Assembly (NCBI GenBank): GCA_964487045.1
Contig: CAZAOT010000003.1
Location: 72,983-136,982, forward strand
Source of the DNA: an uncultured Candidatus Saccharibacteria bacterium
GTDB taxonomy: Bacteria > Patescibacteriota > UBA1384 > DTJR01
Reading direction: 5' to 3'
Length of the DNA: 64,000 nucleotides
Under the pieces are notes generated by a model that saw only the letters and a list, made by a program, of their open reading frames with translations, made no database searches and was not told the origin of the DNA. Positions 1,748 through 33,391 of the stretch are shown piece after piece (position 1 is the stretch's first letter; each line of letters begins with the position of its first letter). A program made the translations under genes and the position numbers.

Positions 1748-1787
1748 AATTCCCACAGCGATATTATTCTGATTGCGGAGGCCTACT

Positions 1788-2111
1788 ATGTCCGACCTTT
1801 CTGCTGTCGCTAGTCGTGTTGTTGGGGGTGTTCTTCTGACTCGGACTCCAGGCAATATCTTGCGCTGGGGGGCATTCCGGGTCGTAAATGCTACGACCAA
1901 CCCGGTTGGGTCGTTGCAGTTGGAGATTGAAGCAGTAGAGCCCCCTTTCAAGCAGTTTGAAGGGCGCTCGGTGGCGAAGGGGGTTTACGGCATGGGGCGG
2001 ATGTTCCGAAACCGAGGCAATCCGCCCAAGTATGACGGGAAGATAATTCGGCTGGAGGATCCTCTGCTGATCGCTGGCTATGATCCGGCGCCGATGATCT
2101 TTCTGATCTAG
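1788..2111 (+). CDS. hypothetical protein, GC-rich cassette 1
   Basis: ATG at 1788 follows GGAG (1777-1780). The track start at 1773 is TTG. Composition is GC-rich against the AT-rich flanks and a terminator follows. No family recognised. Confidence 0.6.
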   Translation: MSDLSAVASRVVGGVLLTRTPGNILRWGAFRVVNATTNPVGSLQLEIEAVEPPFKQFEGRSVAKGVYGMGRMFRNRGNPPKYDGKIIRLEDPLLIAGYDPAPMIFLI

Positions 2112-2134
2112 GGCAGCACCCGCTGACCTACAAA

Positions 2135-2173
2135 GGGGCATCCGCACTCACGTGTGGATGCCCCTTTCTCTTT
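2135..2173. terminator. intrinsic terminator between convergent genes
   Basis: 13-bp stem GGGGCATCCGCAC / GTGTGGATGCCCC with loop TCAC, followed by TTTCTCTTT. AAA upstream allows use from the other strand. Confidence 0.75.
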
Positions 2174-2185
2174 ATCTTCTAGTAT

Positions 2186-2509
2186 TTACTTCTTTGCGGC
2201 TTTTTTGACTTTGTCGTAGCCTTCTTCTAGCTCTGCCTGAATCTCTTTAGCTTGTTTAATGGTAATTTTCTTACCTTTTTCGTATGTTCCTACTACTTTC
2301 TTGACCGCGTCCTTGTAAGTGTCCTTGGTAAAATCTCCAGCTTTTTCAAGCTCAGCAGCGATTTTATCTTTCATTTCCTCTAGATAGTTAGCGATATCAG
2401 CTCGAGTCTCTTTGCCCGACTTTGGAGCAAACAAAATACCGGCGACTGCTCCGGCCAATGCGCCAACTGCTAGTCCTACTCCTACACCCTTCATCGTTTT
2501 CTTGTCCAT
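2186..2509 (-). CDS. YtxH-domain protein
   Basis: N-terminal Gly/Ala-rich helix GVGVGLAVGALAGAVAGILFAPKSGKETR followed by a K/E-rich helical tail, which is the typical YtxH architecture. Confidence 0.8.
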   Translation of the reverse strand: MDKKTMKGVGVGLAVGALAGAVAGILFAPKSGKETRADIANYLEEMKDKIAAELEKAGDFTKDTYKDAVKKVVGTYEKGKKITIKQAKEIQAELEEGYDKVKKAAKK

Positions 2510-2550
2510 CGTTTCCTTTCGTTAATTGATTTGATTATAGCACAATAGTC

Positions 2551-2583
2551 AAAGGCCGCCTCGTTTATGAAAACTCGGCGGCC
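2551..2583 (-). terminator. hairpin abutting stop of HD-domain gene
   Basis: Arms GGCCGCC (2554-2560) and GGCGGCC (2577-2583). On the minus strand only a short TTT tract follows. Confidence 0.5.
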
Positions 2584-3657
2584 CTAGGATTTGCCCCAAT
2601 CGAGATCGGGGTCTTCGAGGTCGAATGATCGTCCGCGGATGAATGGATAGATGCGGGTGATCGAGAGGTTGAGGTGCTCAATGGTTTCACGGCTGAGGAT
2701 TGGCTTGGGCTTGTTGCGAAGTGCCCCGAACAACCGATGGACTTCATAGTCATTCATCTGCAGCAGCAGAAGCGTTGGATTGGCGTCTTGGAAATGCTCA
2801 GAAGACGAGATGAACTCATAACAGCGTTCAAGCTCGCTGGCAAACGGCTTGCGATTAGCGTTGAGCGGTACGTAACAGTTAGCGTACATCCAATCGCGTA
2901 GTCGCCAGAATTCCTTGGCTTCGTCGCTCTTAGAGAAACTGATCCGACCTACCGATGCCGATTCCCTTACCAGGGCATTTGCGAAGTTGAGCAGCCTCTC
3001 TTCCTTGGTTCGTCCGAAGCACATCGCTTGATGGTCGGCCTCTTCGAAGCCTGCTCCGATCCGCAAACCATCCTCGATGTCAGAGAACATGTAGATTTTG
3101 TCTACGATGTTCACCAGGCGAAACTCCTGAGGAAGCCATATGTACTTCTGCCGAGAAGTGCCTGAGTGGTGGTAGATTCCAAGCAGAGTTTCATAGGCCA
3201 GGTCGAGACCTTTGCCCGAGTGTTCAATTCTCTGTAGGTTCAGGCAGGCGATAATGCGGTGGTCGATCGTCAAACCACACAGCTTCGAGATTGTCTCCTC
3301 TCCAAAATGACCGAAGGGTGCGTGGCCGGTGTCATGCCCTAGCCCAACCGCTTCTGTCAAGTACTCATTTAGCTTGAGGAACCAGGCTATGAGCTTAGCG
3401 AGACTTGCAACCTCCATGATGTGAAGCAGTCGATCATTACTGGTCGATTCTTCTCTTCCGATGAAGACTTGGGTCGTTCCATGCTTGCGAAACAGGGACT
3501 CGCTATTGCCGACCCAGTAAGCATCCTCAATGAAGCCTCGCTTACCGGTTGGTCTCCTTCGCCCTCCCTCTTTCTTTGGTCGTCGTCCGCGACTCATCTC
3601 TTCTTGGAACCGTAGGTGCGCCAAGCACCCACGATATCTCTTGTCGAGGTTTAACAC
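2584..3657 (-). CDS. dGTP triphosphohydrolase-like HD-domain protein, GC-rich cassette 2
   Basis: Motifs TTQVF, HIMEV and GLGHDTGHAPFGH match the dGTPase/SAMHD1-type HD signature. GTG start at 3657 lies 7 nt after GGAGGTG. Composition is GC-rich. Confidence 0.75.
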   Translation of the reverse strand: MLNLDKRYRGCLAHLRFQEEMSRGRRPKKEGGRRRPTGKRGFIEDAYWVGNSESLFRKHGTTQVFIGREESTSNDRLLHIMEVASLAKLIAWFLKLNEYLTEAVGLGHDTGHAPFGHFGEETISKLCGLTIDHRIIACLNLQRIEHSGKGLDLAYETLLGIYHHSGTSRQKYIWLPQEFRLVNIVDKIYMFSDIEDGLRIGAGFEEADHQAMCFGRTKEERLLNFANALVRESASVGRISFSKSDEAKEFWRLRDWMYANCYVPLNANRKPFASELERCYEFISSSEHFQDANPTLLLLQMNDYEVHRLFGALRNKPKPILSRETIEHLNLSITRIYPFIRGRSFDLEDPDLDWGKS

Positions 3658-3690
3658 TAGGACGCACCTCCTTATCGTGGGCTGCCTAGG

Positions 3691-3719
3691 ATTGTAGAGA
3701 ACTTATATTCTTAATTCAA
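3691..3719 (-). promoter_or_regulatory. sigma70-type promoter TTGAAT-17-TACAAT for cassette 2
   Basis: On the minus strand, TTGAAT is at 3719-3714 and TACAAT at 3696-3691, with a 17-nt spacer. Confidence 0.6.
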
Positions 3720-3728
3720 GACCAAGTA

Positions 3729-4154
3729 TTATGAAGCGTCTTCTTTCGTTTCAACGTATCTGCCAAGATCATCACGATCTTCAGCCTTGGCGCCCTTTGG
3801 CAATAGTTTTACTGAAATTTTAAATTTTCGAGTCGAGCCGTCTTGATCGGTGATCATGTCAGTTTTCTTTTCATTATAAAAATCCATCAACTCGACCGAG
3901 AGAATATCTCTTAGGGTCTTTATCTCATCCAGGTTTTCCCTAATGTCTTCGGCGAGCTTGGCATTTCCTTCTTGATTAAAAATTGCATCTCTGACTTCTT
4001 TGCGTTTTTTTGCAGCCGATTTTGCCTCCTCGGCAATTTGAGTGTAGGAGGCATCATTTTCAAGGGCGGAGCGAAGTAGCTCTTTAGCTTTTTTATTTTC
4101 TTCTTCTAGTTTTTCAATAATTCCGATTCTTTCTTTGATGACCGATAAATCCAT
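3729..4154 (-). CDS. hypothetical coiled-coil protein
   Basis: ATG at 4154 lies 5 nt after GGAGCGGAGG. The track start at 4208 falls inside the structured leader. The sequence is K/E-rich and helical. Confidence 0.65.
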   Translation of the reverse strand: MDLSVIKERIGIIEKLEEENKKAKELLRSALENDASYTQIAEEAKSAAKKRKEVRDAIFNQEGNAKLAEDIRENLDEIKTLRDILSVELMDFYNEKKTDMITDQDGSTRKFKISVKLLPKGAKAEDRDDLGRYVETKEDAS

Positions 4155-4290: not shown

Positions 4291-4326
4291 CTTAAGATTG
4301 TAACACTATTTTCTTTACGCCAAAAA

Positions 4327-4932: not shown

Positions 4933-6298
4933 TGTTCTCCTTTGATTCGCCCGAAAATTCGATCGATTCAGAATTCTTGGGGATATCTATTTCAATATTC
5001 ATCGTTTCTTTAATTTTGGCCATTAAAGCCTCTTTAGCTTCAGGCTCGCCGTGAACTAGAACGATTTTCTTAACATTTTTAATCTGCGAGACCCACTCGA
5101 CAAGTTTTGGTTGGTCAGCATGCGCGGAGTATGATTGTATCGGGATGATTTTTGCTTTGGAGAAAATTTCACTGCCTCTTATTTTAACTTCCTTATCTCC
5201 GTCAAGCAATCTTCGCCCAAGAGTGCCTTTTACCTGATAACCGACGATCAAAAGCGTTGTATTTTCCTTTGGCAAAAATGCTTTTTCGTGCCATTGAATT
5301 CTACCGCCATTCGACATTCCTGAGCCAGCAATGATGATTTTGGTCGATTCGTCCTTATCTAACTTCATTGAATCTTCGCTTTCTTCAATCATCTTTAGAC
5401 CTTTAAACTCGAAGAAGTCGTCGCCTGATTTTAAAAGGGCCGTAGCTTCGGCATTATAATACTGAGGATATTTAGCGTAAACTTCAGTCGCCTTAATCGC
5501 CAGCGGACTATCAAGATAAACAGGTATAAATGGAATGCTTCCGCCTTCAACTAGGCCGTTTAGTTCATATAGGATCTCTTGAGTTCTTTCCATTGCAAAT
5601 GATGGCATTAGAATAGTTCCATTTTCGCTAATCGAGTCTTTGATAATCTTCGTGAGCTGCTCTTTACGTTTTTCCATCGGTTCATGTTCTCGATCGCCAT
5701 AGGTCGATTCCATAATTACTAAGTCTGCTGATTCAATAAATTCAGTTTTCTTAAGCAGGGGAACTGGAGGATTGCCGAGATCACCCGAAAAAATAATTGT
5801 TTTTCCTTCTGCCTGGATTTTGACAATTGCTGATCCAAGAATATGACCCGCATCATAAAATTCGACTTCCACGCCTTCAATAGGTGAGAATTTCTCGTGA
5901 TAATTTTTTTCTTCAATTAAGGCAACTGTTTTAGCGACATCATCTAGATCATATAATGGTTGTTTATTAACGTACTCGGCTTCATTTTCCATTAAGTGGC
6001 ATGAGTCTTCGAGGAAAATTTTGGCAAATTCTTGAGTTGGCCCAGTAGCATAAATTTTTCCGCCAAATCCCATTTTTACCAGGTGTGGTGTTCGACCAAT
6101 GTGGTCAATGTGAGAGTGGGTCATGATCATCGCACCGACGTCTGCTGGGTTATAGGGGAACTCCTGCCAGTTTAAGACTGTTTCATCGTCCCCACCTTGA
6201 AACAGACCGCAGTCGATAATCAGTTTGCCAGCGCTAGTTTCAAGTAGATAATTTGATCCTGTCACACCTTCGGTAGCTCCACAGAATGTAATTTTCAT
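4922..6298 (-). CDS. MBL-fold beta-CASP ribonuclease-like hydrolase
   Basis: HSHIDHIG metallo-beta-lactamase motif, and a length and C-terminal region consistent with a beta-CASP RNA-metabolising enzyme. Confidence 0.8.
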   Translation of the reverse strand: MKITFCGATEGVTGSNYLLETSAGKLIIDCGLFQGGDDETVLNWQEFPYNPADVGAMIMTHSHIDHIGRTPHLVKMGFGGKIYATGPTQEFAKIFLEDSCHLMENEAEYVNKQPLYDLDDVAKTVALIEEKNYHEKFSPIEGVEVEFYDAGHILGSAIVKIQAEGKTIIFSGDLGNPPVPLLKKTEFIESADLVIMESTYGDREHEPMEKRKEQLTKIIKDSISENGTILMPSFAMERTQEILYELNGLVEGGSIPFIPVYLDSPLAIKATEVYAKYPQYYNAEATALLKSGDDFFEFKGLKMIEESEDSMKLDKDESTKIIIAGSGMSNGGRIQWHEKAFLPKENTTLLIVGYQVKGTLGRRLLDGDKEVKIRGSEIFSKAKIIPIQSYSAHADQPKLVEWVSQIKNVKKIVLVHGEPEAKEALMAKIKETMNIEIDIPKNSESIEFSGESKENNEV

Positions 6299-6990: not shown

Positions 6991-7130
6991 TAAATCTCCT
7001 CAAGTTTAGGTCCTTCGATTCCTGCCCCTCTACCTGACGCACTGCAATAACAGGACGGAGTCAGTTTTGCAGTAAGGAATGGTGTGGGGTGGTCAATATA
7101 TTTTCTAATTGATTGTTGATCTAGTTCCAT
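6990..7130 (-). CDS. upstream mini-ORF (46 codons): DeoC-like N-terminus (..YIDH) fused to conserved tail PTPFLTAKLTPSCYCSASGRGA
   Basis: ATG at 7130 lies 4 nt after AAGGAGGG. The ORF is in frame through the 68-nt element. Its TAA overlaps the deoC ATG as TAATG at 6992-6988. Confidence 0.45.
   Translation of the reverse strand: MELDQQSIRKYIDHPTPFLTAKLTPSCYCSASGRGAGIEGPKLEEI
7021..7088 (-). repeat. 68-nt conserved hairpin element, copy 1 (inverted relative to copy at 13990-14057)
   Basis: CCCACACCATTCCTTACTGCAAAACTGACTCCGTCCTGTTATTGCAGTGCGTCAGGTAGAGGGGCAGG. I counted 59 of 66 positions identical to copy 2. The stem is CTGCAAAAC/GTTATTGCAG. Confidence 0.85.
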
Positions 7131-7157
7131 TTTCCCTCCTTATAACGATACAAATGC

Positions 7158-7184: not shown

Positions 7185-7185
7185 T

Positions 7186-7226
7186 GAAAAGAGAAAGGGC
7201 CGCCGTGTCGAATGACATGGCGGCCC
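7186..7226 (-). terminator. intrinsic terminator of cassette 3
   Basis: Arms GGGCCGCC (7197-7204) and GGCGGCCC (7219-7226), extendable to about 13 bp. TTTCTCTTTT follows on the minus strand. Confidence 0.8.
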
Positions 7227-7245
7227 TGGTTGTGCAGTGAGAGCT

Positions 7246-7968
7246 CTAGCTTGGTAGCTGAAGCGGAGTTAGATACTCAGCAGCTCTGGGAGTCGCCTTG
7301 ATGTCAGCTTTGTATCCATAGGTTCTCGCTGTCTCCAGATCCCAAGCGTAACTACCAGCGGGCTGAGTGGGCCTTGCGATGATTCGCGGGTCAAACCCTA
7401 TCTCATTTCCGGTCGTTGCCCAGTCGATATATGGGTTGATGTCAACTTCATACCGGAAAGGATCGGTCCGATCGCCGGCAGCAAGTGTAGCCAGCTCATC
7501 TAGACGATCGTCTGGCCAGTAAACCTTGCTTGTTGTCTGGCGGTTTTCGATCTCGACCCATTCATCGCCAACTGAGATGACTTCCGCTTCGTCGAAATGG
7601 ACAAATGCCTCTTGCGGAATCTCAATCTCCGGAAACATCAACTCCTCGGGACAGAGCTGTTCGAAGAAGGTCGTGCCAAGTAGCGTTATGCTGTCATCCC
7701 CACGTGGGATGACAAAGTAGGGCTGGTTTTCGTATGCGCCCCACTTCTGGCCAGGCCAGAGATAGCCAAGCGCCCAATCACCGTCTTTTTGCTGATAGAC
7801 GAGCCATGCCGCGCCGCTTCGAACTTCCCACGCTACTGAGCAAAAGTTGTGAAAAGCTGGTTCGGCTGGCCGCTCCGGTGATATCCTTAGCAGGAAAGAG
7901 CAGCACATGTCGGCTTTGTACATGAACGAGTCGATGATCCTTGGCCTAAACTGAAGCCGGTTTGGCAT
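7246..7968 (-). CDS. hypothetical protein, GC-rich cassette 3
   Basis: ATG at 7968 lies 6 nt after AAAGGAGG. The track start at 7992 is less well placed. 240 aa, no motif recognised. Confidence 0.6.
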   Translation of the reverse strand: MPNRLQFRPRIIDSFMYKADMCCSFLLRISPERPAEPAFHNFCSVAWEVRSGAAWLVYQQKDGDWALGYLWPGQKWGAYENQPYFVIPRGDDSITLLGTTFFEQLCPEELMFPEIEIPQEAFVHFDEAEVISVGDEWVEIENRQTTSKVYWPDDRLDELATLAAGDRTDPFRYEVDINPYIDWATTGNEIGFDPRIIARPTQPAGSYAWDLETARTYGYKADIKATPRAAEYLTPLQLPS

Positions 7969-8059: not shown

Positions 8060-8581
8060 TTATTTATAAATATAGATCTTCGGAGAAGTATTCTTTTTTA
8101 ATGGTTTGCGCCCTGTGAAATTAAAGGTTAGGGACACAACGGAAGCATTTCGCTTTAAATTTTTAAAAATAATAGGTTCAATCTTAGCTAAGAGTTTTTC
8201 AAGTAGATAGACATAAATCAAATCAGCTTTGTTTATTAGGTTTTCGTATTTTAATATATTGCCGTAATAAATTTTAATATTTTTGGTTTGATGGTGAAGC
8301 GCAACATTTAATTTGGCGAGTATGAAATAGAAAGGGGAGATTTCGATGCCGATACCTTTTGCTCCAAACTCTTTGGCAGCAATAATCAAGCTTCGCGCAT
8401 TGCCACAGCCGAGATCGATGACCACTTGTCCAGATTTTAAGTAGGCCATCTCAAAAGCCTTTTTAATAATTTTTTCTTTAGCGTAAACCGTCGGTGCACC
8501 TGAAAAGGCGGAGATTAACAGAGAAATTTGCCAAATAAGTGCGATCAAAGCTAGAGTGATAAATAATATAGAAATAGTCAT
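8060..8581 (-). CDS. class I SAM-dependent methyltransferase with N-terminal membrane anchor
   Basis: VIDLGCGNARSLIIAA is the motif I glycine loop. An N-terminal hydrophobic helix is present. Confidence 0.75.
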   Translation of the reverse strand: MTISILFITLALIALIWQISLLISAFSGAPTVYAKEKIIKKAFEMAYLKSGQVVIDLGCGNARSLIIAAKEFGAKGIGIEISPFYFILAKLNVALHHQTKNIKIYYGNILKYENLINKADLIYVYLLEKLLAKIEPIIFKNLKRNASVVSLTFNFTGRKPLKKNTSPKIYIYK

Positions 8582-8611
8582 ATTTATCTAAGATTAACAT
8601 TTTGTTTCATA

Positions 8612-8656
8612 AATAAAAAAGAAAGCCCGGGCGCTCCACTGGGGAGGGCTCGGGCT
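8612..8656 (-). terminator. intrinsic terminator of cassette 4
   Basis: Arms AGCCCGGGC (8624-8632) and GCTCGGGCT (8648-8656). TTTCTTTTTT follows on the minus strand. Confidence 0.8.
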
Positions 8657-8678
8657 TGATGAGGCGTGGTAGCGGGTG

Positions 8679-8939
8679 CTACCGGAGGTTTCGGCGCTGA
8701 TCCGCGGTGGGGTTCTTGCCCACGTTTGAGTTGCCGACCGTCCGCTTTCGCACGATCCAGTCGGCAAGGAGCACGAAGGCGCTGATCGTGGCAGTGATGG
8801 CAGTCATGTAGAGCGTCGGCTTGCTCTTAAACATGATGCCAAAAGCGATGAAAAGCGGGGTAGTGGGGAAGAGGAAGAATTTGAACAATCTCCTCTTTCC
8901 CTTGGTGAGAAAAGACTTCGGCTTGAGTGACTTCATCAT
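8679..8939 (-). CDS. small membrane protein (2 predicted TM), GC-rich cassette 4
   Basis: 86 aa with two hydrophobic stretches and basic termini. GC-rich, last gene before the terminator. Confidence 0.55.
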   Translation of the reverse strand: MMKSLKPKSFLTKGKRRLFKFFLFPTTPLFIAFGIMFKSKPTLYMTAITATISAFVLLADWIVRKRTVGNSNVGKNPTADQRRNLR

Positions 8940-8953
8940 AGTCCTCCCTGTTT

Positions 8954-9523
8954 CTAGCCCTTGCAGTCAGGGCATACGATCGTGATTTGGTTTCCTACGC
9001 CGGACCCTGTGTCCGGAATGAAGGGATCTCCACAGCGGAAGCAGTATCTGGGTTCACCTGCAACCAGCTTCTTGTCTGCATCCGAGCAGACCTTGCACTT
9101 GCGGGGATTCCAGAGGTTGCGTCTGCTTGGGGTATAAGCACCGCAATGTGGGCAGTAGAAGTGTGTCATTAGGCGTTGCCCAGTGCTCTTGGCGACAGGC
9201 GGGATCCAGCGCTTGATCGTGAAGCGCTGCTCCAAACCAGGGTGCAACTCTACCGTAGCGCCGTGGCCGCTGGTAGCTCGGACAGCAAAGCCGTTTTCCA
9301 GAAAGAGGTTCGCTATCTGCGCGAGTTCGCCCAGAGGTTCCTGGTTGAGGGCAGTTGCCAACTCAACATAGCATAGTTCTTCTGGAATGCTAGCGGCAGG
9401 CTGGTTGATTTCGACAGCGATACGAGCTTGCTGCTCCTCGGGTAGATTTGCCAATAAGGCAGTAATCCGCCCCTTGAGCGCGTCTGCTTCTTGGCTTGTA
9501 CTGGTGACTCGGGCGCGGATCAT
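8954..9523 (-). CDS. double zinc-ribbon protein, GC-rich cassette 4
   Basis: The C-terminal 70 aa carry four CxxC pairs (CPHC, CKVC, CFRC, CPDC). The N-terminal about 110 aa are unassigned. SD AGGGAG is upstream. Confidence 0.65.
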   Translation of the reverse strand: MIRARVTSTSQEADALKGRITALLANLPEEQQARIAVEINQPAASIPEELCYVELATALNQEPLGELAQIANLFLENGFAVRATSGHGATVELHPGLEQRFTIKRWIPPVAKSTGQRLMTHFYCPHCGAYTPSRRNLWNPRKCKVCSDADKKLVAGEPRYCFRCGDPFIPDTGSGVGNQITIVCPDCKG

Positions 9524-9571
9524 GGTTGCTCCCTATCCTTTTTGGTATGTAAAGGTTCGAACGAACGTTTG

Positions 9572-9600
9572 ATTATATTTGAATTACGTCCGAATGTCAA
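9572..9600 (-). promoter_or_regulatory. perfect consensus promoter TTGACA-17-TATAAT
   Basis: Minus-strand TTGACA is at 9600-9595 and TATAAT at 9577-9572, with a 17-nt spacer, upstream of the zinc-ribbon gene. Confidence 0.7.
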
Positions 9601-9613
9601 TAATTAAGTACAA

Positions 9614-9634
9614 GGGACGCCGGAGGGGCGTCCC
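9614..9634 (-). terminator. hairpin after 9638..9919 gene
   Basis: Arms GGGACGCC and GGCGTCCC. The downstream T tract is weak. Confidence 0.5.
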
Positions 9635-9637
9635 TGA

Positions 9638-9919
9638 TCAGAGCCAGCAGTCGTGGCGAGTGATGATATTTCCGTCATCGCCAATACTGCCAACTTTGCA
9701 TGTTCTTCCGAGACGGCGAAAGCCTCTCATTGCAGGAGCAAATGCGGCTGCACCTAACAATATATAGAAGCTGGTACCAGATATGCCCGAGATGGTAGCG
9801 AAAAGCCAGAACATCTTGGGGTAGCAGATCGCTACAGTCGTTGAAGTGTACGCAACCCCTTTGAGAAGGGGAGCGAGAACGATCGGTCGTGAAACTAATG
9901 ACAGAATTCGACTGATCAT
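9638..9919 (-). CDS. small membrane protein, GC-rich cassette 4
   Basis: 93 aa with hydrophobic helices. SD GGAAGGAG lies 6 nt before the ATG. Confidence 0.55.
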   Translation of the reverse strand: MISRILSLVSRPIVLAPLLKGVAYTSTTVAICYPKMFWLFATISGISGTSFYILLGAAAFAPAMRGFRRLGRTCKVGSIGDDGNIITRHDCWL

Positions 9920-9984
9920 GCGCTTCTCCTTCCGAGGGATATGGTTAAATTATCCTAAAACAAGTTTGTTTTCAACCTGATAGA

Positions 9985-10074: not shown

Positions 10075-10149
10075 GGGCCTGTAGCTCAGTGGTAGAGCAG
10101 TTGCCTTTTAAGCAACGTGTCGTGGGTTCGATACCCACCAGGCCCTCCA
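10075..10149 (+). tRNA. tRNA-Lys (anticodon UUU), CCA encoded
   Basis: Hand-folded cloverleaf. Acceptor stem GGGCCTG/CAGGCCC, D stem GCTC/GAGC, anticodon stem GTTGC/GCAAC with loop CTTTTAA, T arm GTGGG-TTCGATA-CCCAC. 75 nt in total. Confidence 0.92.
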
Positions 10150-10341: not shown

Positions 10342-10761
10342 ATGAGTAAGCGCATCCTGGTGGTTGATGATGAGCGCCACATCGTCCGTCTGGTTAAGCT
10401 CAACCTGGAACGCGCCGGCGGCTATGACGTCCTGACAGCGTACGACGGGATCGAGGCTCTGGGCAAAGTCAAGACCGAGAGCCCCGATATGGTGGTGCTC
10501 GACATCATGATGCCCCGGATGGACGGTTACGAAGTACTGCGTAACTTGCAAGCAGATCCCAGCTGCCAGAACATACCCGTGATCATGCTGACCGGCAAGG
10601 ACCAGGACGCCGACTTCTTCAAGGCCTGGGCCAGTGGGTTGAGGGCATATATGACAAAGCCCTTTGATCCCCAAGAATTGCTGACATTCATCCAACGGAT
10701 CTTCGAGGCCGATCAAATCGGGTATGGGGATGATACAGATGATTCGTGCTTTGAAGTGTAA
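10342..10761 (+). CDS. stand-alone response-regulator receiver (CheY-like), GC-rich cassette 5
   Basis: The acidic pocket and phospho-acceptor pattern ILVVDDE...DMVVLDIMMPRMDG...MLTGK...KPF is present. No output domain and no kinase nearby. Confidence 0.9.
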   Translation: MSKRILVVDDERHIVRLVKLNLERAGGYDVLTAYDGIEALGKVKTESPDMVVLDIMMPRMDGYEVLRNLQADPSCQNIPVIMLTGKDQDADFFKAWASGLRAYMTKPFDPQELLTFIQRIFEADQIGYGDDTDDSCFEV

Positions 10762-10785: not shown

Positions 10786-10827
10786 ATGCCCGCATCTGCT
10801 CCGGAGGCTTTGCGGGCATTCTTTTTC
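10786..10827 (+). terminator. intrinsic terminator of cassette 5
   Basis: ATGCCCGCA/TGCGGGCAT stem followed by TCTTTTTC. Confidence 0.85.
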
Positions 10828-12404: not shown

Positions 12405-12422
12405 AGTAGGGATCAAAGTGAC

Positions 12423-12477
12423 GGGACTTCCGGAATTGCTTCCTGCCTTGGAGCGCAATTCTCGGAGCGGAGGAAAT
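12423..12477 (+). promoter_or_regulatory. SD-sequestering 5' leader L1 (GGGACTTCCGGAATTGC...GCAATTCTCGGAGCGGAGG)
   Basis: CCGGAATTGC pairs with GCAATTC-N-CGG, and the stem runs into the first GGAG of the SD. About 85% identical to leader L2 at 21435-21490. Confidence 0.55.
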
Positions 12478-12975
12478 ATGGCAAAGCCAACTAAATACGC
12501 AACTCTAATCTGTTTTGTGCTCATGATAGTCGCTGCGATATGCGCCTATATTGGTTATCGCAATCAATCAGCGATTGTTATTGTCCTAGGTCTATTGCCA
12601 ACGGTTATTTATGAAGTCTATCGAACAGAAGGCGAATCAACCCGTGCTTCAAGTTGGCTGATGTTGTTTGTGCTGGTAGCCGAAGCAATCTTAATTTTGT
12701 TTAAGATCAATTTTGATCTCGGGCAATATCTTGGACAATCTGATGCAATAATTGGTGGATCAGTAGTGCCACTTGGCGATATAAAGATTTTGGCTCCAGC
12801 AATTATGGCTCTACTCTCAGTAATTTTATTTACCCGAACAGCCGGAATATATACAAAGTGGTTATCGGTGATAATTTTTGCAGTATCTTTCGTGCTTATT
12901 TATGTTATTTCTCCCGAAGGGTTTTCGGGACTTATAAAATCTGCCATTAATCAGGTTATTTATTGGGGATTCTAA
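12478..12975 (+). CDS. small polytopic membrane protein
   Basis: ATG at 12478 lies 4 nt after GGAGCGGAGG. The track start at 12418 lies inside the leader. Five hydrophobic helices. Confidence 0.65.
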   Translation: MAKPTKYATLICFVLMIVAAICAYIGYRNQSAIVIVLGLLPTVIYEVYRTEGESTRASSWLMLFVLVAEAILILFKINFDLGQYLGQSDAIIGGSVVPLGDIKILAPAIMALLSVILFTRTAGIYTKWLSVIIFAVSFVLIYVISPEGFSGLIKSAINQVIYWGF

Positions 12976-13953: not shown

Positions 13954-14070
13954 ATGATTCGAAACGTTGCGATTATTGCTCATGTAGACCCCACACCGCT
14001 CCTTACTGCAAAACGGATTCCATCCTGTTATTGCAGTGCGTCAGGTCGAGGGGCGAGAGATGACAAATAA
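13954..14070 (+). CDS. upstream mini-ORF (38 codons): TypA-like N-terminus (MIRNVAIIAHVD) fused to conserved tail PTPLLTAKRIPSCYCSASGRGA
   Basis: In frame through the 68-nt element, with TAA at 14068-14070. The nearest GGAGG is 17 nt upstream, so translation is uncertain. Confidence 0.35.
   Translation: MIRNVAIIAHVDPTPLLTAKRIPSCYCSASGRGARDDK
13990..14057 (+). repeat. 68-nt conserved hairpin element, copy 2
   Basis: CCCACACCGCTCCTTACTGCAAAACGGATTCCATCCTGTTATTGCAGTGCGTCAGGTCGAGGGGCGAG. The stem is 14006-14014 paired with 14027-14036. Confidence 0.85.
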
Positions 14071-15917: not shown

Positions 15918-15946
15918 TTGACCTTTTTTGAAAAAATAGGTATAAT
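15918..15946 (+). promoter_or_regulatory. promoter TTGACC-17-TATAAT for cassette 6 operon
   Basis: TTGACC at 15918-15923 and TATAAT at 15941-15946. Confidence 0.65.
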
Positions 15947-15988
15947 TTTCTATTGCTCTTTAACAAACAGGGAAAACGAAAGGAAGAC

Positions 15989-16219
15989 ATGCCGACGTCA
16001 ATCGAGACTAAGGCGAGGAATATCGATAGACACTTGCCGGAGATGATGTGCTTGGCGCACTCGTCCGGCTTGCCTTCGATCATCCTTCCGTTTGGCACTT
16101 TTGACCAGCCAACTCAGGAGAAGCTGCGTGACCTAGTGGCCGAGTACGCCAAAGGCAAGGGCCACAAGACGCGCAAGTTCTTGCATCAGACGCGCCTCTA
16201 TCTCGAGGTGAGTATCTAA
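15989..16219 (+). CDS. hypothetical protein (76 aa), GC-rich cassette 6 gene 1
   Basis: ATG at 15989 after AAAGGAAG. GC-rich. No family recognised. Confidence 0.55.
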   Translation: MPTSIETKARNIDRHLPEMMCLAHSSGLPSIILPFGTFDQPTQEKLRDLVAEYAKGKGHKTRKFLHQTRLYLEVSI

Positions 16220-16226
16220 GGAGGGC

Positions 16227-16448
16227 ATGATGCCCAGGATAACCAGAACTGATTCGGCCGGCAATGCTTTGGAGATCGACGGCGCCAAGGTCGTCGCCGG
16301 GCCTTACGGCTCTCGGGCTGAGGTTGTTGTTGCGCACGCAGAGGTTGGGATGGAGTTGGCTTGTCGTTCGGGACGAATTTCAAGCGGGGTCTTTATTGAG
16401 CTCAATGGAAAGCACTATGCTGTCGAGGTCGCGACACAATTGATGTAA
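16227..16448 (+). CDS. hypothetical protein (73 aa), cassette 6 gene 2
   Basis: AAGGAGGG lies 2 nt before the ATG. There is a 7-nt gap to gene 1. Confidence 0.55.
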   Translation: MMPRITRTDSAGNALEIDGAKVVAGPYGSRAEVVVAHAEVGMELACRSGRISSGVFIELNGKHYAVEVATQLM

Positions 16449-16473
16449 GTTGGCCAAAATAGGGAGGCAGATT

Positions 16474-17739: not shown

Positions 17740-17763
17740 CTTCCCCTGGTTCATGGCTCTACA

Positions 17764-17800
17764 ACGGCTCCCGGCCTAGTGCTTGGGAGCCGTTTTCTTT
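17764..17800 (+). terminator. intrinsic terminator of cassette 6
   Basis: ACGGCTCCC/GGGAGCCGT stem followed by TTTTCTTT. Confidence 0.85.
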
Positions 17801-20389: not shown

Positions 20390-20418
20390 TTGACTTGTCT
20401 GCTGATTTTGTCTAATAT
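20390..20418 (+). promoter_or_regulatory. promoter TTGACT-17-TAATAT for cassette 7
   Basis: TTGACT at 20390-20395 and TAATAT at 20413-20418. Confidence 0.6.
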
Positions 20419-20476: not shown

Positions 20477-20851
20477 ATGCCGAGGGATTCGATTCTCTAC
20501 GAAAAAGCCAGGGCGAGGTGGGAGTATGCTTCACATCTTCCATCTCGCAGTACAGTCAGGCAGTATTCGCTCAAGTGTTTCGCATTAGTATACCCGGTCG
20601 AAGTTTTGCGGGAATACTGGCGTGTAGACGCGTTGTCGCGCCAGAGTCTAATGGTATCGTCTCACAGCTTTGCCCCTTCTCCCGCTGAACTTGCAGCCAT
20701 GGCAGAAGGGCGTGACCGTAATGAACGGCGCGCAAATCAAGCCAGGGCGAGACTCGAAAGGATGGCGACGGAGCACGGGGTGGACCTAGATGCGATGGCT
20801 GATGATATCGCATTCGTTTGGCACAACTGGAGTCTGCTTGAGCTCGAGTAG
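20477..20851 (+). CDS. hypothetical protein (124 aa), GC-rich cassette 7
   Basis: ATG at 20477 lies 6 nt after GGAGGGAG. The C-terminal half is Arg/Ala-rich. Confidence 0.55.
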   Translation: MPRDSILYEKARARWEYASHLPSRSTVRQYSLKCFALVYPVEVLREYWRVDALSRQSLMVSSHSFAPSPAELAAMAEGRDRNERRANQARARLERMATEHGVDLDAMADDIAFVWHNWSLLELE

Positions 20852-20870: not shown

Positions 20871-20902
20871 AAGGCGAGCGCTATGCGTTCGCCTTCATTT
20901 TT
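20871..20902 (+). terminator. intrinsic terminator of cassette 7
   Basis: AAGGCGAGCG/GCGTTCGCCTT stem followed by CATTTTT. Confidence 0.7.
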
Positions 20903-20918: not shown

Positions 20919-21434
20919 TTATATTCTTCTTCTGGAGCTTAGAATAACAATTACGATAATCGGTGCGAGGAGCCAAAGGGTATAATAATCTTTTAGGAAA
21001 TGAACGAAGTGAGTTTGGGAGATAATTTGTGCTTGTGAGGCATCTGGCATGTATTTAAAGATTGTGGCAGAGATTAAAATGCCAGTAATGACTGAATAGA
21101 AGAAGGTCTCGAGCGGTGCCATTAAGGAGTGATCTCTTCCTACTGAGATATCAGCTTTAGAGGCTACCAAGGATACTACGAGCAGAAATAATACTATTTT
21201 GATTGTTGCTGGCGATGCGTCAGAAGTGATCCAGGTATTAGCAACGGTGAGCTTGCCTTCAAAAAACTGCTTGATCGGGTCCGCCCATACCGAAACGATC
21301 ACCATTCCCATATAACAGGCTAGAAGAGCGGACATAATCTTGTCCCGCTGCATCATAAAACCATATAAAACGGTGATAGCAACAAATATACCTAAAAACA
21401 AATCCCAAGTTGGTACGGTTGACGCTACTTGAAT
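20919..21434 (-). CDS. small polytopic membrane protein; start uncertain (ATT 21434 after GGAGCGGAGG, or TTG 21476 as in track)
   Basis: Five hydrophobic helices. There is no ATG/GTG/TTG at SD distance. An in-frame ATT lies 5 nt after GGAGG. Confidence 0.6.
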   Translation of the reverse strand: MQVASTVPTWDLFLGIFVAITVLYGFMMQRDKIMSALLACYMGMVIVSVWADPIKQFFEGKLTVANTWITSDASPATIKIVLFLLVVSLVASKADISVGRDHSLMAPLETFFYSVITGILISATIFKYMPDASQAQIISQTHFVHFLKDYYTLWLLAPIIVIVILSSRRRI

Positions 21435-21590
21435 ATTCCCCTCCGCTCCGTGAATTGCGCTCTTCGTCGGAAGCAATTCCGGAAGCCCCGCATCAATTCA
21501 CGAAGCGAAACACGAATGAATAATTCGAGTGGAGCATTCGAGAATTCGGTGCTGGGGCATTTCATTATTTTCCCTAACAAAAACATTATA
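21435..21590 (-). promoter_or_regulatory. long structured 5' leader (L2) with SD-sequestering stem; riboswitch/attenuator candidate
   Basis: Extended -10 TGGTATAAT near 21592-21584. GCCCC...GGGGC closing stem and CGAATG/CATTCG hairpin. CGCTTCGTGAATTG pairs with CAATTCACGGAGCG, which overlaps the SD. Confidence 0.5.
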
Positions 21591-29015: not shown

Positions 29016-29023
29016 ATTGTTCC

Positions 29024-29485: not shown

Positions 29486-29540
29486 GCTTATTACCTCGAC
29501 AGAAATACTAGCATATTAACAAAAAAAAGAAAGTTTCGAA

Positions 29541-30113: not shown

Positions 30114-30137
30114 AAATACTGCTTATAATTATAGTAA

Positions 30138-31556
30138 ATGAAAAAAGGTTTAGCGTCAAAGCTTAATCTATTGGCGCACCCTACTTATTTGTTGATCTTT
30201 TTGACTCTAGGGTTGATTGTCAGTGTAAATTTACCCTTATGGCTAATTTATTTATCTTTTTACCTCACTTTTATTGGCATTTTGTTGGTTCTATTTAAAA
30301 TTAAAAGTGGTGCTTGTTTAGTTTTTCTTGGTTTTGGAATTTTGATCGGAAGCTATCATTTATATAGTGTCGATCATCCCCTTCCAAGCGGTTGTGATGA
30401 TGCGAAAGTTCTTTCAAGGGCAAAGAAATTTAAGACAGGGTTTGTATATAAAATCAAGGGTTCTAAAGAAGTTCTTCTCTACAGCCAAAGCGATGATTTC
30501 AAGATCGCTGATAAAGTGCGAGTATGTTTTGGTAAGCCACTTTTACTCGAGGCAAGGGATCGCAGATATCTTCTATCTCAACTACATAGCCAAAACCTGA
30601 TGGATGCAAGTGAAATAAAGTTACTTGAGCCGGGCAAGGGGGTGAAGAATTATTTAGAACTTCTTAGCGATAAATTTGCAGGCGATGCTGCAAAACTTTT
30701 CTCGGGAGATCAGGGCACTTTAGCTTATGGTGTGATTTTTGGCGGCGGTGATTTTTCAAAAGAGCTCAAGAATGACTTTAAGCGAAGTGGCACAACTCAC
30801 ATCGTTGCAGTCTCGGGTTACAACGTATCGATTATCACTGCTTGGATGTTTGATTTTCTGCGCCAAATAAGTAAGAATTTTTCGGGAATATTTTCTGTCT
30901 TGGCGCTAGTGGGGTTTTATTTTATTACTGGCGGATCGGCTTCGGTTCTTCGCGCTTCGGTCATGGGAGTGATTATTCTTCTTACTAAATTTATAGGTCG
31001 CAAGGTTTCGCCTCTTCATTTATTAATGCTAGCGGCGAGTTTGATTTTAGCTTTTAATCCTTTTGCTCTTTATGATTGGGGATTTCAACTTTCCTTCTTG
31101 GCAACAGCCGGATTATTTTTTCTTGCACCTGCGATTGAAAGCTTGCTCTCTAGAGTAAAATTCAATAAAAGTTTAATTAAGACTTTTAGCGAAACGATCG
31201 GTGCACAAATTTTTGTCCTGCCGATACTTGTGGCAAATTTTGGTTCATTTTCTATCATCTCGCCACTTACTAATCTTTTGATCCTGCCCCTTATTCCCCT
31301 TTTAATGAGCTTAGTCTTTATTTCACTTATAGGTTTTACCCTCTATCATCCGCTGGGAATATTTTTATCTGGAATAACAAAAATATTATTAGCTTATGTA
31401 ATTTGGATCGTAAAATTAAGTTCACTGCTGCCGTTTGCGAGTCTTAATTATAAACTTGATCCCTTGATCGCTATTCCTTTTGGATATGGCATAATCATAC
31501 TATTAACTTATTACTTAAGAAGAAGATATCTTGTTAAATCAAAACAAAATATTTGA
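30138..31556 (+). CDS. comEC: ComEC/Rec2 DNA-uptake channel, membrane (competence) domain only
   Basis: GTTHIVAVSGYNVSI motif and multiple TM helices. The MBL domain is missing. Confidence 0.82.
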   Translation: MKKGLASKLNLLAHPTYLLIFLTLGLIVSVNLPLWLIYLSFYLTFIGILLVLFKIKSGACLVFLGFGILIGSYHLYSVDHPLPSGCDDAKVLSRAKKFKTGFVYKIKGSKEVLLYSQSDDFKIADKVRVCFGKPLLLEARDRRYLLSQLHSQNLMDASEIKLLEPGKGVKNYLELLSDKFAGDAAKLFSGDQGTLAYGVIFGGGDFSKELKNDFKRSGTTHIVAVSGYNVSIITAWMFDFLRQISKNFSGIFSVLALVGFYFITGGSASVLRASVMGVIILLTKFIGRKVSPLHLLMLAASLILAFNPFALYDWGFQLSFLATAGLFFLAPAIESLLSRVKFNKSLIKTFSETIGAQIFVLPILVANFGSFSIISPLTNLLILPLIPLLMSLVFISLIGFTLYHPLGIFLSGITKILLAYVIWIVKLSSLLPFASLNYKLDPLIAIPFGYGIIILLTYYLRRRYLVKSKQNI

Positions 31557-32394
31557 CTACCTGCTGCTAGCAGTTGTTTTAGTTGGTCTTTTTCTGTATT
31601 CGACAATATATCAAAATGCTCAAGCCAACATTGACCCTGCCTCAGCCAAAATTAGTTTTTTGGATGTCGGCCAAGCGGATTGCGCATTAGTTAATTTGCC
31701 AAATAATAAGCAAATTCTGATCGATGCAGGCAAATCGTCAGACGTTGTCTCGAAAATAAGATCGAGGATGCCGGCCTTTGATTCGGAGATAGAAGCGGTT
31801 TTCTTGAGTCATCCAGATAGTGACCATGTTGGAGGGTTTGTCTCGGTTCTTAATTCTTACAAAGTCGACAAAGTTTATCTGAACACCGATCAATCTGACT
31901 CTAAGACTTTTGACGCGATTTTAGCTGAAATGGATAAGCAAAAAATTTCTCACGAAGTGATCGGCTCTGGACGAGACGTGTATATAGAAGATCTGCGAAT
32001 CAAAACGCTTTGGCCTTCGGAAAATAGTGGTTCCTTAAGTGAAAATAATCGCTCCTTGGTGCTAAAGCTAATGATCAAATCGGGAGTCGCTCTTTTTACG
32101 GGAGATCTCGAGATAGAAGGGCAGAATAAATTAATGAGTGAATATAAGGAAGAAGATCTTTTGGCAGATTTGTATAAAGTTCCACATCACGGAGCCTCTG
32201 GAGCGTGGAATGAAAGCTTTGCCCAGAAGGTTAAACCCAAAAATGCTGTGATTTCGGTAGGTAATAATTCATATGGTCATCCTGGGCAAAGTACAATTAC
32301 GGGACTTGAGAAGATAGGAAGTAAGGTTTATCGCACAGATCAGCTAGGTACGATTGATTTTGTCCTAAGTGAAGCGGGATTTGTGTCAAAATAA
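31531..32394 (+). CDS. ComEC C-terminal MBL-fold domain encoded as separate ORF
   Basis: FLDVGQADC, HPDSDHVGG and VPHHGA motifs. It overlaps the previous ORF by 26 nt in the +1 frame. The start is a TTG. Confidence 0.78.
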   Translation: MLNQNKIFDYLLLAVVLVGLFLYSTIYQNAQANIDPASAKISFLDVGQADCALVNLPNNKQILIDAGKSSDVVSKIRSRMPAFDSEIEAVFLSHPDSDHVGGFVSVLNSYKVDKVYLNTDQSDSKTFDAILAEMDKQKISHEVIGSGRDVYIEDLRIKTLWPSENSGSLSENNRSLVLKLMIKSGVALFTGDLEIEGQNKLMSEYKEEDLLADLYKVPHHGASGAWNESFAQKVKPKNAVISVGNNSYGHPGQSTITGLEKIGSKVYRTDQLGTIDFVLSEAGFVSK

Positions 32395-32398
32395 TACT

Positions 32399-32436
32399 TA
32401 AAAAAGAGGAAAGCCCCCCGCCATGCGGCAGGGGGC
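32399..32436 (-). terminator. intrinsic terminator of cassette 8 (probably bidirectional)
   Basis: GCCCCCCGCC/GGCAGGGGGC stem. TTTCCTCTTTTTT follows on the minus strand. Confidence 0.8.
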
Positions 32437-32461
32437 CTTGTTTCCCGGTGCGATGAAAGTC

Positions 32462-32911
32462 TCACCAGCGTCCCCCCGGGTAGGGGTTGTTGGCGCGCTC
32501 GAAGTTCCGCTGAGCGCGCTCCAGGTCTCGGTAGCCGCTCGACAGGTAGCCGAGCCGCCGCCGCTCCGCTTCGATGGCGGAGATTTGGTTGTTGTACCCA
32601 CCCTGAGGCAGGTACCCGCCTTGGTAGCTGTAGCCACCCTGGGCGACGTAGCCGTTGCCGCAGCCATAGTTGCGCTGCTGGCAACCGCAGATAGTGCCGA
32701 TCGGCCTGATTTGGAAGCAGGCCGAACAGCGGACGAGCTGCGCCTGCGGGGCGAAGTAACCGCCACCGCAGGTGGGCATCGGCATCGGGCGATAGCCCGG
32801 GCCGCACCCACCACCGCTGCCACCGACCGAGAGGATCACGGTGATCCTGGGGCCGGCGCTCGCCGTCGAAACGGCGGCGATTACGACGAGAACGATTGGC
32901 ATCGTCCTCAT
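32462..32911 (-). CDS. secreted Gly/Cys/Tyr-rich low-complexity protein, GC-rich cassette 8
   Basis: ATG at 32911 yields the signal peptide MRTMPIVLVVIAAVSTASA. GGY repeats and 10 Cys. It was chosen over three overlapping ORFs because it has an SD, a promoter and a terminator. Confidence 0.55.
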   Translation of the reverse strand: MRTMPIVLVVIAAVSTASAGPRITVILSVGGSGGGCGPGYRPMPMPTCGGGYFAPQAQLVRCSACFQIRPIGTICGCQQRNYGCGNGYVAQGGYSYQGGYLPQGGYNNQISAIEAERRRLGYLSSGYRDLERAQRNFERANNPYPGGRW

Positions 32912-32956
32912 TTTGGACACCTCTTTCAAAGGTGCTGGAATTGACTGATTCGGGTA

Positions 32957-32985
32957 ACTATACCACAATTACCCGAGAAAGTCAA
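32957..32985 (-). promoter_or_regulatory. promoter TTGACT-17-TATAGT with CGGGTAA/TTACCCG inverted repeat spanning the -10
   Basis: Minus-strand TTGACT is at 32985-32980 and TATAGT at 32962-32957. The inverted repeat is CGGGTAATTGTGGTATAGTTACCCG. Confidence 0.6.
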
Positions 32986-32988
32986 GGT

Positions 32989-33348
32989 TCAGACCCTCAG
33001 CATCGCTCCCACGCTCAGCTCCATCTGAGTCTCGAGCCTATCAAGTGAGCAATATGCCCTCTGGATCGAAACCTCCCGAAGATCTCTCGGCTTTGCCAGG
33101 GAGATGACGTGTATCTCGCCGAGTTCATGCTCCTCAAGTGTATCAACAGCAGTTGTGTGACCTTCATTGCAGATAATCAGGTAAGGTCCTTCGCACTTGA
33201 GAGCGAAGATCTCCCGAATATCTCTTCCGTGGAATTCGTGAAGCAGGTATGTCAGCTCGAGGCGTTCAAGTACCGCCTTTACTTTTGAGCCGATCATCCG
33301 CTGATCCTCGACTGCCACGGCCGATACAACACAGATTTGCCTTTTCAA
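32989..33348 (-). CDS. hypothetical protein (119 aa), GC-rich cassette 8
   Basis: TTG at 33348 lies 7 nt after AAGGAGG. No motif recognised. Confidence 0.5.
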   Translation of the reverse strand: MKRQICVVSAVAVEDQRMIGSKVKAVLERLELTYLLHEFHGRDIREIFALKCEGPYLIICNEGHTTAVDTLEEHELGEIHVISLAKPRDLREVSIQRAYCSLDRLETQMELSVGAMLRV

Positions 33349-33362
33349 ACCCTTCGCCTCCT

Positions 33363-33391
33363 TTGCGAAAGATGTGGTTCTAAGATATAAT
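33363..33391 (+). promoter_or_regulatory. promoter TTGCGA-17-TATAAT for yebC-ruvC
   Basis: TTGCGA at 33363-33368 and TATAAT at 33386-33391. Confidence 0.55.

Follow-up and report, generated by a model that had tools for sequence, protein, structure and literature searches.

GC-rich gene cassettes of probable foreign origin in the AT-rich chromosome of a candidate phyla radiation bacterium

Bacteria of the candidate phyla radiation (CPR; Patescibacteria) are mostly uncultured episymbionts whose hosts are largely unknown, and datable, traceable gene imports are among the few genomic clues to their partners. A 64,000-nucleotide stretch of contig CAZAOT010000003.1 from an uncultured Candidatus Saccharibacteria bacterium (hereafter the window) carries eight sharply bounded GC-rich gene cassettes (C1 to C8) between AT-rich backbone genes, and raises the question of where these genes came from and how they have stayed GC-rich. 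A first-pass annotation, made from the sequence alone, had offered three explanations: repeated acquisition from a high-GC donor, an unknown cassette-insertion mechanism, or a chimeric or engineered sequence. We find that the mosaic is real. The cassettes are probably accessory genes that an AT-rich CPR chromosome acquired repeatedly, and at different times, from high-GC foreign sources, and that have slowly lost GC since then. Acquisition of foreign genes is a known process, and this locus is an unusually clean case of it that reveals no new mechanism.

The mosaic and its parts

A two-state hidden Markov model (HMM) of G+C content, run over the whole window, delimits eight GC-rich segments (Table 1), and a 400-nt GC profile also recovers the same eight. 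GC is 0.53-0.60 inside the segments versus 0.33-0.41 in the backbone between and beyond them, a contrast of about 20 GC points. The limits given in the first-pass annotation agree with the HMM within tens of bases, with the exception of segment 5: its right edge holds, but the HMM places its left edge about 130 nt later. By direct reading of the sequence, the segments comprise 13 coding sequences (C1, C2, C3, C4a, C4b, C4c, C5, C6a, C6a2, C6b, C7, C8a and C8b). Their GC content at third codon positions (GC3) is 0.50-0.83, versus 0.27-0.47 (mean 0.35, sd 0.037) in the 52 backbone open reading frames (ORFs) of at least 90 aa; the two ranges are disjoint (Mann-Whitney p = 1.6e-8). The shift extends to all three codon positions: pooled GC1/2/3 is 0.59/0.43/0.64 in the cassettes and 0.48/0.36/0.34 in the backbone. 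Since the first and second positions are shifted as well, the cassette proteins are rich in Ala, Arg, Gly and Pro, as had been noticed at first reading. Codon usage of the cassettes correlates with that of an Armatimonadia locus (r = 0.79) and is anticorrelated with that of the backbone (r = -0.35). In composition, cassette and backbone genes are fully separated at every codon position.

Two further HMM segments, at 57088-57486 and 57830-58271, were rejected as cassettes: both lie inside one Gly-rich repeat protein, and their GC is an amino-acid effect of its Gly (GGN) codons. The observation that all eight cassettes lie in the first half of the window therefore stands. The repeat protein itself (1085 aa, 56110-59367) has a C-terminal membrane anchor and is probably surface or adhesin-like. 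RNA genes are a common cause of GC islands in AT-rich genomes. This origin was likewise rejected for the GC-rich patches, as Rfam (gathering and E-value thresholds) and ARAGORN together found a tRNA-Lys alone.

The cassette units, 0.4-1.8 kb in length and together about 22% of 33 kb, follow a common plan: an AT-rich sigma-70-type promoter leads to a Shine-Dalgarno sequence and between one and three GC-rich coding sequences, and a GC-rich, T-tailed hairpin closes the unit. Every cassette gene is preceded by a Shine-Dalgarno sequence and every cassette ends in a T-tailed GC-rich hairpin (three terminators were found by a scanner and the others by direct reading), so that much of the early description of each segment as one complete unit is borne out; segments 4 and 8, however, consist of two units each, which brings the 13 coding sequences to about 10 transcription units. 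In segment 4, C4c ends in a separate terminator and C4b starts from a separate promoter, and in segment 8, C8a has its own TTGACT-17-TATAGT. The GC-rich stretch starts at the Shine-Dalgarno sequence or the start codon, and the promoters are thus AT-rich and compositionally native. The perfect TTGACA-17-TATAAT reported in the first-pass annotation lies upstream of C4b, and it is kept in a sister species (locus L092, see below). The promoter scan found TTGACC-17-TATAAT before C6 and weaker matches before C1, C2, C3, C5 and C7. Being self-contained from promoter to terminator, the units sit in intergenic spacers and leave their neighbours undisturbed; C1 and C2 are parted by a single native gene, YtxH. 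The same 107-aa C1 gene is called on single-run contigs. In the case of C8a, automatic calls in public assemblies place a plus-strand antisense ORF (173 aa, 32423-32944) across it. That annotation is probably on the wrong strand, given the minus-strand GC3 pattern, Shine-Dalgarno sequence, signal peptide and terminator that we read directly.

Could so sharp a mosaic have been engineered, or result from chimeric assembly or faulty binning? The very sharp boundaries, the one exactly consensus promoter and the fact that some single-run contigs stop near cassette edges (for example at 10086-10111 and 17764) all invite the suspicion. However, independent contigs assembled from single runs match the window at 100% identity and between them span all 16 junctions (Table 1), with no break at any of the boundaries whose continuity had been in doubt. 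The runs come from three projects (SRR118456xx, SRR29243437 and SRR27710321), contigs of the latter two matching at 99.6-100% identity, and sister species sequenced in other studies have the same gene order in diverged sequence, including the perfect promoter. With single-run assemblies of three projects carrying both cassettes and junctions, the chimeric or engineered option is refuted, and an artefact of any of these kinds is scarcely conceivable. The 7 differences between strains all fall in a backbone gene, hyp159, and none in C2.

Table 1. Cassette features of the window, the GC-rich segments delimited by the HMM, and the single-run contigs covering them
Feature	Position	Strand	HMM segment	Description
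L083	1-10111			Single-run contig, 100% identity; C1-C4
L001	10086-12374			Single-run contig, 100% identity; C5
L105	14399-19805			Single-run contig, 100% identity; C6
L100	17764-23119			Single-run contig, 100% identity; C7
L093	32275-40003			Single-run contig, 100% identity; C8
C1	1788-2111	+	1775-2164	Orphan, 107 aa; GC 0.56, GC3 0.63; terminator hairpin 2132-2167
C2	2554-3719	-	2554-3690	dGTPase-like HD-domain protein, coding 2584-3657, 357 aa; promoter TTGAAT-17-TACAAT 3719-3691; conserved 5' untranslated region; terminator hairpin 2554-2583
C3	7186-8057	-	7197-7978	Orphan, 240 aa, coding 7246-7968; promoter TTGACT-17-TACTAT 8057-8029; terminator 7186-7226
C4b-C4a unit	8611-9600	-	8625-9938 (with C4c)	Promoter TTGACA-17-TATAAT 9600-9572; terminator 8611-8656
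C4b	8954-9523	-		189 aa; Cys-rich zinc-ribbon-like C-terminal tail
C4a	8679-8936	-		85-aa membrane protein
C4c	9614-9919	-		93-aa membrane protein, coding 9638-9919; own terminator hairpin 9614-9634
tRNA-Lys(UUU)	10075-10149	+		Backbone gene between C4 and C5; variable hot spot
C5	10342-10827	+	10329-10817	Single-domain CheY-like response regulator, coding 10342-10761, 139 aa; GC3 0.71; terminator 10786-10827
C6 operon	15918-17794	+	15991-17792	Promoter TTGACC-17-TATAAT 15918-15946; terminator 17763-17794
C6a	15989-16219	+		76 aa
C6a2	16227-16448	+		73 aa
C6b	16474-17739	+		421 aa, all-alpha solenoid (model)
C7	20390-20895	+	20460-20893	Orphan, 124 aa, coding 20477-20851; promoter-like TTGACT-17-TAATAT 20390-20418; terminator 20871-20895
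C8	32400-33348	-	32413-33323	C8b and C8a; terminator 32400-32438
C8b	32989-33348	-		119-aa orphan
C8a	32462-32911	-		149 aa, signal peptide, rich in Gly, Cys and Tyr; GC3 0.83

Sister species and turnover of the slots

The backbone encodes TypA, DeoC, a beta-CASP metallo-beta-lactamase-fold protein (MBL), YtxH, NUDIX, DnaK/DnaJ/GrpE, ComEC, YebC and RuvC. TypA is most similar (81-70% identity) to the proteins of metagenome-assembled genomes (MAGs) labelled Berkelbacteria or Saccharibacteria, which identifies the organism as a CPR/Patescibacteria bacterium. None of 80 GTDB loci around TypA (best TypA identity 81%) has neighbour genes in common with the window, and closer relatives were reached through searches with cassette and backbone proteins.

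The first of these, locus L092 (ERR14964768), has backbone proteins 77-92% identical to those of the window and reads, in order, partial tRNA, C4c, C4b, C4a, C3, DeoC, MBL, LDcluster4, hyp159, C2 and YtxH. Its C4c adjoins the same tRNA as in the window; the partial tRNA, at the contig end, was read directly, ARAGORN having found none there. The cassette proteins are 57% (C4c), 75% (C4b), 40% (C4a), 54% (C3) and 76% (C2) identical to their window counterparts, the 5' untranslated region of C2 is retained, and GC3 is 0.60-0.82 in cassettes versus 0.43-0.59 in the backbone. C2 occupies the same slot in sister species at about 71-76% identity. In a second species, ERZ1426829 (DNA pieces L088-91, L103 and L104), C2 is 74% identical and a 108-aa gene at the position and in the orientation of C1 is probably its orthologue. 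The C6 operon stands upstream of LysM there, as in the window (C6a 42%, C6a2 37% and C6b 41% identity), with C6a2 and C6b at 0.52-0.54 GC, and C3 is missing between the methyltransferase and DeoC. On L103 (134-655), of the ERZ1426829 type, the middle gene of the C6 operon encodes 173 aa versus 73 aa in the window and has a weak, sub-threshold match to the GH-E HNH/EndoVII toxin domain (E = 0.005), a hint that the operon might derive from a toxin-immunity module.

A third locus, L098, comes from a landfill metagenome; its MBL is 81% identical to that of the window and its order is NUDIX ... tRNA-Lys ... methyltransferase, DeoC, MBL, LDcluster4, hyp159, YtxH ... DUF1405. None of C2, C3, C4 and C5 is present. 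In the same slots or in neighbouring ones, L098 has other GC-rich genes (0.62-0.69 GC): tRNA-Lys and the methyltransferase enclose genes for an ASCH protein and for a protein of 199 aa, a secreted Thr/Pro-rich protein of 178 aa is encoded between LDcluster4 and hyp159, and a FucI-like enzyme at the locus edge. The tRNA-Lys is kept and is flanked by different genes. Across species, the slots whose GC-rich cargo differs are tRNA-Lys/methyltransferase, LDcluster4/hyp159 and YtxH/DUF1405.

C2, C3, C4, C6 and probably C1 thus have positional orthologues in sister species, and most acquisitions must be old: at least six coding sequences (C2, C3, C4a, C4b, C4c and the C6 operon) were in their slots before the split between the window lineage and L092. 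Aligned over this split, cassette proteins have evolved much faster than backbone proteins (40-76% versus 77-92% identity). Gain and loss are ongoing in this family, as the GC-rich genes of L098 in the same or adjacent slots show. The first-pass annotation had proposed that orthologous cassettes at the same positions throughout the lineage would mark ancient native genes. They are found in two sisters and are absent from the third, so this expectation is half borne out, and the cassettes are neither recent private insertions nor lineage-wide ancient genes. They are a turnover-prone accessory layer, kept across speciation in some branches and replaced in others.

Turnover extends to AT-rich genes of the locus. 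The methyltransferase gene at 8060-8581 (GC 0.34, between C4 and C3) is absent in L092 and stands beside DeoC in L098 and ERZ1426829; its patchy occurrence indicates that AT-rich genes are also gained and lost here. L098 has an AT-rich pair of Gp49/HigB-like and HTH antitoxin genes between NUDIX and tRNA-Lys (4960-6192). It also has a gene for a 23S-rRNA-intervening-sequence-family protein between DeoC and the beta-CASP MBL (9580-9948), two genes that overlap in the window.

Relatives of the cassette genes and the fate of their GC

The product of C5 matches Pfam Response_reg with 102 bits (cutoff 30) over residues 5-117 of 139, carries the motifs DDE, VVLDIMMP and TKPF by direct reading, and consists of a receiver with no output domain. 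Having the acidic pocket, phospho-acceptor Asp and conserved Lys of a CheY-like single-domain response regulator, it is likely a stand-alone phospho-acceptor. Its best 120 matches are proteins of about 136-141 aa at 64-78% identity by local BLAST. Nine of these have a source name: seven Armatimonadota/Armatimonadia, one Bacteroidota MAG and one 'bacterium'. The homologue in an Armatimonadia genome (about 60% GC) lies among core genes, between rpmH-rnpA-yidD-yidC-jag and thiL; its GC (0.557) and GC3 (0.72) resemble those of the window gene (0.545 and 0.71), and the two share 72% nucleotide identity, limited to the coding sequence. As sequence comparison places them, the closest known relatives of C5 form an Armatimonadota-type response-regulator family with the same codon composition. 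The family is internally tight (mean identity 83%), and C5 is an outlier on a long branch, 63-73% identical to all members in the full-length alignment, with no second CPR-like sequence on that branch. So divergent a member of an otherwise tight family argues for transfer into CPR. The pattern fits a transfer after which evolution sped up, or a source that is related to the sampled donors but itself unsampled.

C2 has a Pfam HD domain (30.4 bits, cutoff 22; sequence ...LGHDTGHAPFGH...). Its best NCBIfam dGTPase match is partial (133 bits, below the cutoff of 393), as is its PADLOC dGTPase match (E = 2.6e-21), and it aligns with PDB 2dqb over residues 54-203 (E = 1.5e-16). It is likely a dNTP triphosphohydrolase, acting in nucleotide-pool control or anti-phage defence. 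Beyond three sister species its best relatives are 31-38% identical. C6b has two relatives among 1.84 billion representative proteins, one of which we traced to a sister species, upstream of LysM. A structure model built from three sequences (pLDDT 79) is an all-alpha solenoid with only generic TPR/HEAT-like fold matches (TM <=0.32), and a scaffold of this type is its likely role. The model of C3, from a single sequence, was discarded as unusable (pLDDT 42). The other orphan cassettes match no Pfam, NCBIfam, PHROG or PADLOC family; C4a, C4c and C8a are likely small membrane or secreted proteins. No relatives emerged from four viral-contig scans or from a tblastn search that compared nine orphan proteins, pooled, with phage and plasmid collections, and the sole PHROG match is a weak one to the C2 HD protein; a phage, plasmid or viral source of the cassettes was rejected on these grounds.

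How much GC the cassettes have lost can be approached through the split between the window and L092. Across it, both gene classes are close to saturation at synonymous sites, which makes dN/dS ratios unreliable. Within conserved codon families, four-fold sites have an identity of 0.388 in cassettes (0.282 expected at saturation) and 0.294 in the backbone (0.253 expected), and GC at these sites (GC4) is 0.55 and 0.66 in cassettes versus 0.38 and 0.53 in the backbone. Under a two-state model, the residual identity signal of about 15% implies that each lineage retains about 39% of the initial compositional excess; back-calculated, cassette GC4 would have been about 0.82-0.87 at the split. GC4 today is 0.80 in C5 and 0.77 in its Armatimonadia homologue. 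Three-taxon parsimony on third positions of C2 counts GC->AT versus AT->GC changes of 35:16 in the window, 48:20 in L088 and 23:20 in L092; the window backbone itself drifts AT-ward at about 2:1. Taken together, the two-state decay and the C2 parsimony fit, loosely, ordinary amelioration from a donor of roughly 60-68% GC. According to the model of Lawrence and Ochman, horizontally acquired genes reportedly drift to the resident composition. The cassettes behave likewise in that GC-rich imports in an AT-biased genome lose GC, with a two-fold GC->AT excess in C2 and present values that fit decay from a GC4 of about 0.8-0.9; they differ in that decay looks slow relative to near-saturated synonymous divergence, and in that the backbone is also moving AT-ward.

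Several observations weigh against a foreign high-GC origin with slow GC loss thereafter. Of the 13 coding sequences, C5 alone has an indicated donor group, and C5 itself falls outside the sampled family. The nearest C2 outgroup (35% identity) is a native AT-rich gene in a 35%-GC small-genome contig, so that the C2 donor could be another CPR bacterium and a GC-rich non-CPR donor is not supported there. C6b has no homologue outside sister CPR genomes among the representative proteins searched. Despite near-saturated synonymous sites, cassette GC4 still exceeds that of the backbone by 0.13-0.17, and on the window branch the GC3 of cassettes and backbone drops in parallel by about 0.05 each, without convergence (parsimony). 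Finally, no integration mechanism was seen directly.

Much of this would also be expected if the cassettes were long-resident, lineage-specific genes whose GC is actively maintained, for example through selection on mRNA or codon composition, or through GC-biased gene conversion where accessory loci recombine often. Cassettes of both species are still GC-rich at near-saturated four-fold sites and fall in GC3 only in step with the backbone, searches found no homologue of C6b or of most other cassettes beyond sister CPR genomes, the C2 outgroup homologue is compositionally native in an AT-rich genome, and C5 keeps its high GC4 despite a long protein branch. However, simple two-state decay suffices to yield the values of today, and C2 has its GC->AT excess in two of three lineages. 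The shift of GC1 and GC2, and hence of the amino acids, fits a long history at about 52-61% GC. C5 is clearly of an Armatimonadota-type family, and the unrelated islands of L098, including the FucI-like enzyme, look like fresh imports. We judge active maintenance unlikely and favour repeated acquisition, the first of the explanations offered at the outset, while its high-GC donor is tied to a particular group for C5 alone.

If repeated acquisition is indeed the explanation, small foreign transcription units can take up about one fifth of a 33-kb stretch in a streamlined genome, and they persist across speciation while evolving fast. The locus is then a natural test case for the rate at which GC-rich imports drift AT-ward in AT-biased reduced genomes, and C5, in pointing to Armatimonadota-like bacteria, provides a testable host or donor hypothesis. 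Its interest lies in its clarity, in orphan GC-rich genes that persist across species, and in this lead to a possible partner organism.

Neighbouring elements, route of entry and known systems

The backbone has some features of its own. Cumulative GC skew reaches a minimum near 7-8 kb and genes turn from the minus to the plus strand around the tRNA, near 10 kb; from these two signs, a replication origin or terminus could lie near cassettes 1-5. A 67-nt hairpin element is present in two copies of 91% identity, at 13957-14054 (+) and 7024-7135 (-), located 28-34 nt before the TypA and DeoC starts and oriented alike with respect to the gene that follows. A short upstream ORF ends in either copy, and its first 12 or so codons are a degenerate copy of the downstream N-terminus (MIRNVAIIAHVD... 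before TypA and ...SIRKYIDH... before DeoC). L092 is without the element before DeoC, so the hairpin there looks like an insertion of about 140 nt in the 5' end of the gene, one that seems to have duplicated the first codons and brought in a fresh Shine-Dalgarno sequence; the hairpin may be a small mobile element. Separately, inverted repeats at 12422-12473 and 21440-21490 (95-96% identity) make up a 5' leader or N-terminus common to two membrane proteins of 185 aa that are paralogues (12418-12975, + and 20919-21476, -) and could be a common regulatory element.

How did the cassettes enter? In line with the first reading of the sequence, which had noted no integrase, transposase, flanking repeat or shared end, we find no integrase, transposase or recombinase domain in the scanned window genes or in the precomputed Pfam annotation of matching contigs, and the repeat search returned no sequence or repeat family common to the cassette ends. 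The 5' and 3' ends of tRNA-Lys (26-28 nt, <=3 mismatches) have no second copy in the window. Comparison of filled and empty sites shows an inserted block running from promoter to terminator with no visible target duplication, although the divergence of about 30% would mask short ones. The proposal of an unknown insertion mechanism thus finds no positive evidence. Together, individually transferred genes and genomic islands have been reported to account for up to 13% of genome length in Patescibacteria, with competence proposed as the route (PMC12455944). We propose a comparable route here, since ComEC is encoded in the window (30138-32394): foreign DNA would be taken up by natural transformation and integrated by illegitimate recombination, and selection would retain only insertions that lie between genes and are transcriptionally insulated, without read-through to neighbours. 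Slow drift of the cassette genes to the AT-rich composition of the genome (amelioration) would follow.

A more specific scenario is that preferred slots repeatedly capture DNA of a GC-rich partner, maybe an Armatimonadota-like host, via competence, and that the genes stay GC-rich longer than mutation pressure allows. If true, the cassettes would be both a record of host association and a set of compositionally protected, fast-evolving genes for host interaction or defence; we hold it to be quite unlikely. Stronger still would be a dedicated capture system that inserts promoter-gene-terminator modules at preferred slots, be it integron-like, a tRNA-targeting integrase island or a competence-coupled, site-preferring device. 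The same slots holding different GC-rich cargo by species, the two cassettes flanking tRNA-Lys and the uniform modular architecture speak for such a system. However, the genes of the window and of related contigs supply no enzyme for it, neither cassette ends nor tRNA ends supply the repeats it would leave, filled and empty sites differ by no duplication long enough to be seen at their divergence, the 3' hairpins are ordinary intrinsic terminators of unrelated sequence, and the cassettes, dispersed and carrying promoters, are unlike integron arrays. We consider a dedicated system very unlikely, and retain uptake with illegitimate recombination as the working proposal.

Among known systems, integron cassettes resemble the window units in being small and mobile-looking, with one or a few genes and a 3' hairpin. 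The defining features of integrons are nevertheless absent: neither IntI nor an attC core is present, the units lie scattered across 32 kb instead of forming an array and have their own promoters, and their hairpins are unrelated T-tailed terminators. tRNA-linked islands come to mind since tRNA-Lys adjoins the most variable slot of both the window and L098, and a partial tRNA stands at the L092 contig end. In contrast to islands defined by a tRNA-targeting integrase, neither an integrase nor a direct repeat of the tRNA end is present, and six of the eight cassettes lie far from the tRNA. Phage morons are closer in design, being autonomous units of deviant GC with a promoter, one or a few ORFs and an intrinsic terminator between intact resident genes. 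The residents here, however, are chromosomal housekeeping genes (TypA, DeoC, the DnaK operon and YebC/RuvC) and not a prophage, and the cassettes have no relatives on the viral contigs or phage genomes searched beyond the one weak PHROG match of C2.

The closest parallel is with the transferred genes and islands of Patescibacteria (PMC12455944). Relative to these, the compositional contrast in the window is unusually sharp, with disjoint GC3, the units are very small and numerous, most of them are orphans conserved only among sister species, and in the literature text searched we did not meet an Armatimonadota-type family as a source of CPR genes. What the two have in common is genes of foreign composition in a streamlined CPR chromosome, patchy among relatives, with donors from other phyla (in the window, indicated for C5) and competence proposed as the entry. 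The cassettes have the composition, the patchy distribution and the contiguity of horizontally acquired islets, and, in the case of C5, the donor as well.

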